In this document: in pieces, positions 44,291-48,289 of the stretch | How the letters are laid out: each line of letters begins with the position of its first letter | Position numbering within the stretch: position 1 is the stretch's first letter | DNA from: Felis catus | Taxonomy: Eukaryota | NCBI RefSeq assembly: GCF_018350175.1 | Contig: NC_058377.1 | Coordinates: forward strand, 112,158,001-112,222,000 | Length of the DNA: 64,000 nucleotides | Reading direction: 5' to 3' | Notes under the pieces: generated by a model | Database searches by the model: none | Seen by the model: the letters and a program-made list of their open reading frames with translations, nothing else | Told to the model about the DNA's origin: nothing | Translations under genes and position numbers: made by a program

Positions 44291-45186
44291 GAATTGGTAG
44301 CGATGTCCTGGCTCTCATTTCTGCTATAGGAGGTTGTGCCCGCCACACCCCCCTTTTATTCCCGGAGAAGCTTGGCTAGAAGTTTATCAATGTTACTGCT
44401 GTTTTCAAAGAACCGGCTTTAGGTGTCATTATATCCCCTATTATTGTTCTATTTTCTATTTCATCGATTGCTGTGATCTTCACTATTTCCCTTTTTCTCC
44501 TTATTTGGGTTTAATTTGCTCTTTTTCTTCTAGCTTCTGAGTGGAAGCTGAGGTCATTGATTTGAGCACTTTCTTTTCTAATGGAGGCATTCAGTCCTAT
44601 AAATTTCCCTTAAGGACTACTTTTGTGGTGCCCTACACACGTTGGTGGGTTGTGTTTTCATTTTCATTCAACTCAAATACTACCTAATTTCCCATTTGAT
44701 TCTTACTTTGACCCATGAATTATTTAGAGCAGCATTATTTAGTTTATAAGCATTTGGGGGGTTTTCCTGAGATCTTTCTCTTATCGGTTCCTGATACAAT
44801 TCTACTAGGGAACAAATTTGTATGACTTGAATACTTTTGAGTTTATTGACACCTGTTTTACGACACAGAATATGGTTTATCTCGAGGACTGTTCCAAGTG
44901 CTTTCGAAAAGAAAGCACAGAGCTCTACAGATGTCAATTAGGCCAAATTGGTTGAGAGCGTTGTTCCAATTTCCTACATCCTTACTGATTTTCTGTGTAC
45001 TTGCTCTATTGGCTATTGAAATAGCTGATTATAATTGAGGATCTATTTCTCTTTACAGGTCTACCAATTTTTGCCTCATGTATTTTGAAGCTCTGTTATG
45101 AGATGCGTACGTTTATGGTTCTTATGTCCTTCTACAGAATGGACTCTTCTATCATTATGAAATTACATTCTTAAACTCTGCTAACA

Positions 45187-45339
45187 TTTTTTTTTTTGAG
45201 GTGGGGTGCTGAGGGAGTTGCCAACCTCAGGTCCAAAAAGCCTTCACAGTTAAGGCACTTACTTATAGGAAGCAAGCACCTTCCCAACCTCATTTTTTAC
45301 ATGTGCACTTGTCTATCCTTTCAGTAATCAAAGGGGGAA
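45187..45339 (-). other. 3' extension (142 nt) and A11 tail of the U12 retrocopy
   Basis: Non-L1 sequence between the U12 3' end and T11 (45187-45197); whole insert flanked by TSD tctg(c/t)taacat at 45177-45187 and 45490-45500. Confidence 0.85.
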
Positions 45340-45489
45340 CAGGCAGAATGGGACTTCCAGGCATCCTGCAAAGCAGGCAGGTCACCTTAGGGATGACCTT
45401 TACCCACTCAAAAATTCGTCTCACATCAGCAGTGAGGATTTAGGTGTCACCCCAAATCATTGTGTTCCTTACTCATAAGTTTAAGGTAT
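45340..45489 (-). pseudogene. RNU12: U12 minor-spliceosomal snRNA retropseudogene (full-length 150 nt)
   Basis: Reverse complement ATACCTTAAACTTATGAGTAAGGAACACAATGATTTGGGGTGACACCTAAATCCTCACTGCTGATGTGAGACGAATTTTTGAGTGGGTAAAGGTC...CTGCCTG aligns ungapped to recalled human U12 (about 127/150 by hand count, many CpG-decay changes); Sm site AATTTTTG intact. Confidence 0.93.
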
Positions 45490-48289
45490 TCTGTTAACAT
45501 CCTTTATTATGAAACCTACTTTGATGCTAATATGCCTACTAAAGTTTTCTTTTGGCTTTCTTTTCTTTTGGTATAGCCTTACCACACTCTTGCTTTTTAA
45601 CATACCTGTGTCTTAATAGTTAAGGTGTGCCCCTTGGAGGCGTCCTGCTTGTCTTCTAACCTGACAATTCTGCCTTTTAACTGGGGTGTGTTTGCACCAT
45701 TTACGTTTAATGTGATTATTGATATGGTTACGTTTAACTTCAATCTTCTGTTTTTTATTTGCTCTATATGTATTTTGTCTCCCTTTCTCTCCCTCTTTTC
45801 CTACCTTCTTTTGGGCTGAATATTTTTATGATTCCATTTTATCTCCTGTGTCACCTTATTAGCTATAATTTTTTGTTTGGTTACTTTAGCAGTTGCCCTA
45901 CATATTACCTTTCCCTGTGTCATAAGCCCCAAACTACATTGTTATTATTTCTGTTTAAAGCCAATGACTTTTATTTCTTAAAAAATTTTTTTAAGCCAAT
46001 GACTTTTAAAGGGATTTAAATAGTAAGCACATTTCTTTACATAGTCTTGCTGTTGCCATTTCTGGTGCCTTCCTTCCTCTGAGTATTTCCATCCAGTGTC
46101 ACTCTCCTTGTACCTGAAGGAAGTCCTTCGTTCGATGTTTCTCAAAGTGCAGCCCGCCAGTGATGAAGCCTTTTAGCTTTTGCGTTTTTTAGAAGTCTTT
46201 GTTTTACCTTTGTTTTTGAAGTAGCTCTGTTTTCCTCCTCCGTTAGTACTTTCAAGACGTATCTCTGTGACTTCTCACTTGCACTGTTTCTAATGCTGGA
46301 TCTGCTGTCATTCTTGTCTTTGTTCTTTGTAGGGGATGCATCTTTCCCCACTCTGCTGGCTTTTTAAAGATTTTTATCTTTGTCACTGGTTTTGAGCAAT
46401 TGGAAAACTATGTGTGTTGGTGGACTTTTTTCCCCAGGGGGTCTTGAGTTTGCTCAATCTGTGAGTTCACAGTTCACTTGCAGTTTTGAAACATTTTTAT
46501 CATTATTTAAATATTTTTTCTGTCTTTCTCCCCACATGAGCACCTCCACTCCAGGAACTTATACTGACATGAAGCTGACCCATAGTGCACTGATGCTCTA
46601 TTGTTTTATTTCCTTAAAAATGATGGTTCCTTTTTCTCTCTGTGTCGCCCTTGGGACGGTTTCTAGCATTACTTCTTTGCGTTCACTGTCCTTTCCTTCT
46701 GCAATGTCTGATCTGCCATTAATCCCATGCTGTGTATTTTTCATTTCAGACATTGTAGTTTTCAACTCTGGAAGTTTAAATTGAGTTTTAAAATTAAAAA
46801 AAAATTTGTGGGGAAATACAACATAAAATTTGCCATCTTAATCATTTTTAAGTGTACAGTCCAGAGAATTTTAATTTTTTCCCCTGTCACTATTATCCTA
46901 TGGAATATAGTTATGATTCTTTAATATCCTTCTCTGCTAATTCTAACTACTATGTCAATCCCTGGTCAGCTTTGACTAATTGATTTTTCTCCTATGGGTT
47001 GTGTTTTCTGCTTCTTTGCACACCTGGGAATTTCTGAGTGGATGCCACACACTGCAAATTCCACTTTGCTGGGGTGCTGAGTATTTTTGTGTTCTTATAA
47101 ATATTCCTGAGTTTTGTTTTGCGTGCAGCTAAGTGACCTGGAAAGGGTCTGATGTTTCAGGTCTTGGTTTCAAGATTTGTTAGGTGAGAACAGAGACATG
47201 ATTAGTTTAGGGCTGATTACTCTCCAGTGTGAAGGCAGGACCCTCCTGAGTACCTTCCCAATGCTGCATGAATTTTCTGCTTTTTTTTCTTCTTCCAGTT
47301 TGGTGGGTAGGAAGAGGCCCTGCCTCTTTATCTTGCGTGAGCTCCAGACACCGTTCTCGAACCCTTTGGGTGATGCTTTCTCTGGCTTTTCACCAATGAG
47401 TGTGCTGGTTGGAGCTTTGCTGACTCCCTCCGTGCAGCTACTTCCTCTTTGGCACTCTGTTCTGCAAACGATGGCTGCCGTGGGCCCCTGGGCTCTCAGC
47501 CCCACCTCTACCTGAGTATCCTTCCAGCCTGCGCCGGGCTTCTCGCTCCTGGACACTCAGCGCGGGACGCCGGGGCAGTCATAGGGCTTGTCTTGTGTGT
47601 TTGCATCTTTCACGGTCAAAACAAGGCCTCGTTTCACACATTTTGTCTGAGTTTTGGTCGTTTCCTGTGGAAGGCAAGTCCAGGCTCTGTTTTCCCATCA
47701 CGGCCATGAACAGAAGGAGGCATTTTTTTAAATATAATTTTAAGTTTCTTTTTTTGTGGAAAATCTCAAACATAAACAAAAGTAATGAGAAGTACCACAA
47801 TAAGCCCTATGACCCCTCCTGAAATTTCCACCATCATCCATTTTGGGGCACTACTCTTACTGAGACAATCTCAAACTTCCCTGCTTTTAATCCACACTAC
47901 CTTGCTTCTCACGGGTGCTGACCCCAAATGGGAGTGGAGACGCAACGGTGTCCCAGGACAGTGACTATTCACTCAGGTGCCCGGGAGGGGGGGTGGCCCC
48001 CACGGCCTGAATGCCAAGACTCTCAGACTCACGCTGAAGTGTGTAATCACGCCTGACAAAGACACAGGTGGTCACCGATCTTGGAAAAGGAAGAAATGAC
48101 TGGCACTCCCGAGAGACTGGGCCTCCTTTCCCACCCACCCCTCCAGCACCAGCGTTCACGGACAGCACGCACCTGGCGAGACACGAGCTCACACGGTGCT
48201 CCGAGATCACATGTGCACCACTGACAAGTAATTCATTTACTCTTCATCATAACTAAGCAATCCCTTCCCTATTTCCTGTTCAGAGACCT

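Follow-up and report, generated by a model that had tools for sequence, protein, structure and literature searches.

The window analysed here is a stretch of 64,000 nucleotides of the Felis catus genome (contig NC_058377.1), and the element in question is a copy of the U12 small nuclear RNA (snRNA) that lies on its minus strand within an old L1 element. The copy continues past the mature 3' end of U12 into an extension, which is followed by an A tail, and the whole insert is bounded by a target site duplication (TSD; Table 1). The same extension is present in 10 of 13 non-functional U12 copies of the cat genome, the window copy included. We consider it quite probable that L1 captured an uncut germ-line transcript of the functional U12 gene, RNU12, and that the copies preserve an older state of the flank downstream of this gene. 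Positions with a plus sign are counted from the mature 3' end of U12 unless stated otherwise.

The U12 copy in the window

An Rfam scan of the 64-kb window gave a sole match, U12 (RF00007) at 45489-45340 on the minus strand, which covers model positions 1-151 and scores 114 bits (gathering threshold 53; E 5e-22, covariance model). The initial annotation, which was made from the letters alone and named the Rfam model as a check, had described a full-length, ungapped U12 copy from nucleotide 1 with about 85% identity. The match is well above threshold and bears this out, with 86% identity and no gaps against the functional U12 of the genome (locus L001). CpG decay had also been claimed; 11 of 22 CpG sites differ from live U12, 10 of these 11 changes being decay-type, compared with 10 of 128 non-CpG sites. 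The motifs GAGTAAGGA, which we take to be the branch-site-pairing sequence, and AATTTTTG, presumably the Sm site, are both unaltered relative to functional U12, as had been stated. Stem-loop III is damaged, with non-standard pairs in the Rfam alignment and an altered predicted fold, and upstream of the copy there is no snRNA promoter, only the TSD and the host L1. The window U12 copy is a dead, inert copy.

Table 1. Features of the U12 insert and its host L1 (positions in the window)
Feature	Position	Strand	Basis
Whole insert, minus-strand order	TSD 45500-45490, U12 45489-45340, extension 45339-45198, A11 45197-45187, TSD 45187-45177	-	
U12 snRNA copy from nucleotide 1, decayed, promoterless	45340..45489	-	Rfam RF00007, functional-gene comparison
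Branch-site-pairing motif (presumed) GAGTAAGGA, unaltered	45466..45474	-	Sequence, Rfam alignment, functional-gene comparison
Sm site (presumed) AATTTTTG, unaltered	45409..45416	-	Sequence, Rfam alignment, functional-gene comparison
TSD, 5' copy, possibly reaching 45505 (16 nt)	45490..45500		Single copy in paralogous L1s
TSD, 3' copy	45177..45187		Sequence match to 5' copy
A11 tail	45187..45197	-	Not encoded at this place in longer sister copies
3' extension, 142 nt, common to 9 other copies	45198..45339	-	102/140 to leave-one-out majority of sister copies
3'-box-like element, +11 to +28	45312..45329	-	Loose match to consensus; same place in functional gene
Homolog of sister copies' AATAAA, +40 to +45; AAAAAA here	45293..45298	-	Alignment
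Host old L1, downstream part, frames broken	44850..45176	-	40 scored matches, paralogs at 66-80%; same orientation as insert
Host old L1, upstream part	45501..45649	-	Joined directly to downstream part in paralogs; left of junction, 105/159 to majority

The 11-nt TSD and the A11 tail were correctly identified. The two TSD copies differ by 1 mismatch and are the only plus-strand pair of matches within 64 kb. The tail has one base in common with the TSD, and in the alignment no A run occurs at its position in the longer copies or in the live flank. The TSD may be 16 nt long, its 3' copy having merged with the tail, in which case the true tail is possibly shorter than 11; solely this 16-nt reading gives a loose match to the L1 endonuclease consensus.

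The downstream part of the host L1 is presumably the ORF2 endonuclease region, judging by its motifs. From 24 paralogous loci that were fetched, 6 were dropped because their match began far from the junction, and the remaining 18 old L1 copies span the junction with a single TSD copy, 17 of them free of gaps there. The host is identical to their majority at 260 of 349 positions. Since the paralogous L1s carry a single TSD copy across the junction, the insert splits an older L1 that runs in its own direction, in agreement with the insertion into an old L1 first proposed.

A TSD at a target that is otherwise contiguous, an unencoded A tail and the lack of a parental 5' flank are features of poly(A)-type snRNA processed pseudogenes, and the window copy has all three. 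A DNA duplication carrying its flanks along (Group I) was rejected, since the 3' flank alone is shared and both a tail and a TSD are present.

The run past the mature 3' end has the 142-nt length initially given. Its 3'-box-like element fits the consensus loosely, both spacers being one base over length and GATT standing in place of GTTT. In a 9-copy alignment, 8 invariant columns fall in +12 to +28, and the functional gene has the element at the same place. The 3'-box call has its support in position and in conservation with the functional gene. Neither AATAAA nor any of 11 variant hexamers occurs within the 142-nt extension, nor is there a hexamer within 40 nt upstream of the tail. The absence of AATAAA before the tail therefore stands for the window copy, but the initial annotation overlooked the fossil AATAAA at +40 in the sister copies. 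The predicted fold of the extension shows nothing significant (z -1.25). Its segment at 45252-45282 forms a hairpin with 13-bp arms (including G-U pairs), of which the right arm is unlike that of the sister copies, as if a local template switch had rewritten it with the left arm as source.

The RNU12 gene, its copies and the source of the extension

In the Rfam search of the genome, functional U12 is confined to one locus, L001, which scores 157.6 bits and retains every CpG. A coding start lies head to head with it, and from the encoded peptide we take that gene to be POLDIP3; a PDB search with the 20-residue start of this neighbour gave no match. The assembly holds no second copy of the L001 promoter or flank (1 match each).

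There are at least 13 non-functional copies, of which 11 were found beside the functional gene in the genome search, followed by L027 and then by L037. The last of these (L037:1390-1540) is degenerate and 5'-incomplete, was overlooked by the Rfam genome search and was recovered via the extension alone; further degenerate copies like it probably exist. The extensions are 73-91% identical to the leave-one-out majority. Except for the 5'-degenerate L037, all copies (12 of 13) start at U12 nucleotide 1, and none of the 12 copies tested has upstream similarity to L001. Because they start at nucleotide 1 and lack the upstream sequence of the gene, each copy derives from a promoter-driven RNA. The TSD is recognisable in most copies and degenerate in L003, L004 and L010. 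Two copies, L008 (1501-1820) and L012 (1501-2060), lie 330 kb apart on one contig and have the same L1 context, a common deletion and a common end, so we counted them as one insertion duplicated with its flanks; a SINE (short interspersed element) arrived inside the extension of L012 after this duplication. The longest copy, L003 (1501-2390), contains two SINEs within its extension and one just upstream. For comparison, none of the 3 U11 copies is extended. In the one U4atac copy (L070:1501-1650), the first ~20 downstream bases are like the live U4atac flank, possibly a short read-through.

Over non-CpG sites, the Jukes-Cantor (JC) distance to the live gene is 0.083 for the window copy, 0.065-0.137 for 11 of the 12 copies measured (L037 being excluded) and 0.216 for L027. 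With known carnivore neutral rates, this would place the copies at roughly 40-70 million years of age, near the base of Carnivora, with a wide error given 128 sites. An old origin is also consistent with the SINEs that have entered the extensions of L003 and L012. At non-CpG sites, the U12 bodies of the copies show no majority difference from the live gene.

A self-propagating, U12-derived SINE family descended from one master retrocopy would account for the common tail sequence and for the similar age of those 11 copies. We consider it very improbable, since the ends vary from +1 to ~+257 while the starts are fixed at +1 of U12, the copies share no diagnostic changes and only 13 of them were found. 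U12 has no internal promoter, which also counts against such a family.

As to where the extension comes from, genome searches returned no match to it free of U12; every match was attached to a U12 copy. A match to an mRNA, repeat or locus other than the RNU12 flank, named at the outset as the result that would make the insert a template-switch chimera, was thus not found. Compared with the live flank, the majority sequence of the copies is identical at 27 of 31 positions in +1 to +33. Beyond +33, none of 2000 shuffles and none of 2000 genomic fragments reached the score of the global alignment, with 36 of 50 positions identical in +121 to +177, and L003 matches the live flank onward to +257 (0 of 500 shuffles). 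Judged by sequence, the extension and the RNU12 downstream flank are homologous, and the live flank is altered more than the copies. The proposal of a captured, uncut and adenylated pre-U12 that keeps the old RNU12 flank is accordingly supported, the extension being colinear with the functional flank. The suggested BLAST of the extension against this flank fails, giving no match because +34 to +120 has drifted, and this check alone would mislead. The capture was not a rare accident, the window copy being one of 10 that are extended. An inversion of the middle of the live flank was tested as the cause of its divergence and does not explain it.

The failed BLAST is what a template-switch chimera would produce, in which the L1 reverse transcriptase began copying a different polyadenylated RNA before switching to mature U12, and such joins are common for U6 (PMC4476161). 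Nine independent insertions would, however, need an identical partner and an identical junction base, the live flank is matched by the first 33 nt of the extension, L003 is colinear with it to +257 and no U12-free match exists in the genome searches. This explanation is largely refuted, and we give it hardly any weight. The source of the copies is instead, with good probability, the live RNU12 locus.

Ends of the copies and change in the live flank

The positions at which the tails start differ among the copies. Three are short-tailed (L006 at +1, L027 at +6 and L009 at +9) and end before the 3' box, so that they look like normally cut precursors. A second set has its tails at +59 (L007 and L011), +61 (L010) and ~+61 (L037), with the four ends lying in +59 to +62. 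The remainder are longer, with tails at ~+97 (L005), +99 (L004), about +140 to +142 (window copy), ~+175 (L008/L012) and ~+257 in live-gene numbering (L003).

The majority extension contains AATAAA at +40 to +45, which is exact in 4 of the 10 extended copies. The ends of 4 of the 9 independent extended copies fall within 5 nt, 14-17 nt past this hexamer. If ends were uniform, such a cluster would have a p of 0.006 over a 190-nt range and 0.034 over a 100-nt range, in a test that excludes the three short-tailed copies and also L012, since it duplicates L008. The longer copies have a U/GU-rich TGCTTGTTTCC after the clustered ends. In canonical poly(A) sites, AATAAA lies 10-30 nt before the ends and a U/GU-rich element follows. 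The site at +40 thus shows the hexamer spacing, the clustered ends and the U/GU-rich element of a poly(A) site, though in a small sample, and the AATAAA of the source flank likely served as the poly(A) signal for the four sister copies. We also considered whether the read-through copies came from source alleles lacking AATAAA. This was too weak, with the hexamer intact in 3 of the 4 copies ending there and in 1 of 5 independent read-through copies.

The window copy ends without a hexamer, which fits stochastic termination followed by oligoadenylation, as in human RNU12 precursors (PMC7610016). Its end could instead reflect canonical cleavage and polyadenylation of a transcript from the same source, directed by a downstream signal now lost to decay. 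Four sister copies stop 14-17 nt past AATAAA, two more ends lie ~3 nt apart at +97 to +99, ~20 nt past an AGTAAA of L004, and the window extension has lost 27% of its letters, sufficient to erase a hexamer. On the other side, no hexamer is found in the 40 nt before the window tail, the homologous place in three longer copies has no visible hexamer and no other copy ends near +140. A decayed signal is therefore unlikely in our view; it would alter this one step alone and is compatible with the rest of the explanation preferred here.

The live flank now has its first AATAAA at +175 and a T10 run near +154. Variation in L001 from +1 to +600 was assessed with raw single-cell RNA reads of the source organism. 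Ten variable sites fall in +1 to +200, all of them within +83 to +165, versus 5 in +201 to +600, of which just 1 is at >=20% (p 0.01 and 1e-4 for the contrast). One more flank site is fixed against the reference in the reads. In run X20, seven substitutions and a deletion are linked on one contig. Contig X18 carries, between +36 and +187, 13 substitutions as well as a deletion of 11 nt; neither kind of change occurs in a contig of 195 nt located further down. In the segment +36 to +187 (L001:1686-1837), two haplotypes differ by ~9 substitutions within a stretch of 83 nt, and hardly any variation is seen over the following 400 nt. Among the reference-side changes shared against X18, 4 of 6 are A/T to G/C.

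When variable sites were masked prior to alignment, the majority sequence of the copies sided with the second haplotype at 4 of its 7 sites and never with the reference, the remaining 3 matching neither. Among the 8 other sites, it agreed with the reference at 3 and with the other letter at 1, matched neither at 3 and had a gap at 1. The simplest reading is that the flank is fast-changing and still moving off the state kept in the copies. Pol II snRNA genes have been reported to be hypermutable, with an excess in gene bodies that is strongest in primates (bioRxiv 10.64898/2026.10.12.758683).

In all 3 raw-read runs examined, the live flank is covered by RNA reads (17, 67 and 104 mapped) that belong to a single strand, probably the sense strand of U12. 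Their depth peaks at L001:1951-2250 (+300 to +600), past every fossil end. A 39-nt partial match at L001:1779-1817 that recurs in three runs was disregarded, its loose ends being unrelated.

A lost or unassembled U12 gene, duplicated as DNA and having its own promoter and a weak 3' box, might have fed the copies in place of the live locus. In +34 to +120, the live flank is far further from the copies than the copies are among themselves, and a poorly cleaved variant gene would account for 10 of 13 copies being extended; human U1 variant genes are known to be poorly cleaved (PMC13573567). Such a gene is nonetheless improbable. Promoter and flank each occur only once in the assembly, local change among living haplotypes is rapid and polarised toward the copies, and the U12 bodies of the copies have no majority non-CpG difference from the live gene.

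Several results weigh against derivation of the copies from a fast-changing live RNU12 flank. The segment +34 to +120 of this flank is not significantly alignable to the copies (208 of 2000 shuffles were as good), and the change in it is far above the 8-14% non-CpG divergence of most U12 bodies, which a lost paralog would explain equally well. The segment limits in both the flank alignment and the haplotype comparison were set by eye, with the data already seen. The second haplotype could be introgressed or stem from an unassembled paralog. The mapped reads exclude the U12 body, so that no join to U12 was seen, and they show no clustered RNA ends. Metagenome contigs, scanned with exact patterns for the U12 loci of other mammals, gave 0 stretches, and neither an RNU12 flank nor an orthologous empty site was obtained from another species, the reads coming from the source organism and close relatives. 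The boundary of the 11-nt TSD misfits the L1 endonuclease consensus. In addition, the reported hypermutability lies in excess in gene bodies and not in flanks, and the available text names no felid (bioRxiv 10.64898/2026.10.12.758683).

Proposed origin and comparison with known systems

From these data we infer target-primed reverse transcription (TPRT) by L1, a bypass of Integrator, the use of CPSF at +40, oligoadenylation of the RNA behind the window copy and the live locus as source. In this scheme, Pol II would start at +1 of RNU12 and Integrator would fail to cut at the 3' box. Part of the uncut RNAs would be cleaved and polyadenylated at the AATAAA at +40, giving the four copies that end at +59 to +62, while others, including that of the window copy, would run on to a stochastic end and receive an A tail from the nuclear surveillance machinery. 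L1 ORF2p would then prime on the A tail and copy the RNA in full, the window copy landing in an older L1. Thereafter the copies would decay neutrally and the live flank from ~+35 to +190 would change much faster, losing AATAAA and gaining a T run, with the older state kept in the copies. In human cells, full-length uncut RNU12 precursors with stochastic 3' ends have been found by a method that enriches oligoadenylated ends (PMC7610016), and CPSF73 is a back-up at some snRNA genes (PMC7610016).

We tentatively suggest, as a possibility we hold at somewhat below even, that in the carnivore ancestor a functional poly(A) site lay 60 nt beyond the mature end of RNU12 and that germ-line transcripts which had escaped Integrator, polyadenylated in the manner of mRNAs, were the preferred L1 cargo. 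The termination zone would then have mutated fast, the site giving way to a T-run end, and snRNA downstream flanks would be mutation hot zones that can be read from retrocopies.

The window copy alone is ordinary, but the family likely forms a fossil map of RNA ends. The U12 cargo of L1 in the germ line would have consisted mostly of uncut precursors (10 of 13, versus 0 of 3 for U11), which bears on where and how L1 recruits RNAs. The family also supplies dated ancestral sequence of an snRNA termination zone, and it opens two questions to testing. One is whether poly(A) signals stood in at RNU12 when Integrator failed to cut, the other whether mutation is faster in the read-through zones of snRNA genes than in adjacent DNA.

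Our literature search, with older papers and supplements outside its scope, found no retrocopy series of read-through snRNA precursors, no fossil U12 poly(A) site and no use of retrocopies to polarise a fast-changing flank. The available text of PMC7968993, PMC9757054, PMC5967550 and bioRxiv 2025.02.02.635956 holds nothing on extended U12 copies.

For poly(A)-type snRNA processed pseudogenes, direct recruitment by L1 ORF2p of already adenylated snRNAs, including surveillance substrates, has been proposed (Doucet et al. 2015, PMC4476161). Group II of that study resembles the cat copies in having a full-length snRNA copy, an A-rich tail and a TSD. Its copies, in the text available, consist of a mature or 3'-truncated snRNA and a tail, whereas the cat copies extend across the 3' box and take in 60-260 nt of flank, and none of the 3 U12 sequences analysed in its human table is of the poly(A) class. 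The Integrator-independent, exosome-targeted precursors of Davidson et al. 2020 (PMC7610016) likewise include uncut, full-length RNU12 with stochastic 3' ends. The RNAs described there come from living human cells, appear mostly upon loss of DIS3 and often end at T runs, whereas the cat copies are germ-line DNA fossils with a cluster of ends after AATAAA and no T run at the end of the window copy. Retrocopies of microRNA precursors (PMC7692494) and of pre-tRNAs (cited in PMC4476161) are also L1 copies of precursors that reveal the end of the parental transcript; they concern other RNA classes, and the portions available do not describe a single snRNA gene with a series of staggered ends. The hypermutable Pol II snRNA genes (bioRxiv 10.64898/2026.10.12.758683) are alike in raised germ-line variation at transcribed snRNA loci. 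That work deals with gene bodies and its main text, as available, does not name RNU12, in contrast to the first 190 nt of downstream flank in the cat family. The class of poly(A) snRNA pseudogenes, of which the cat copies are a variant, is known, and so, from human cells, is the class of template RNAs.

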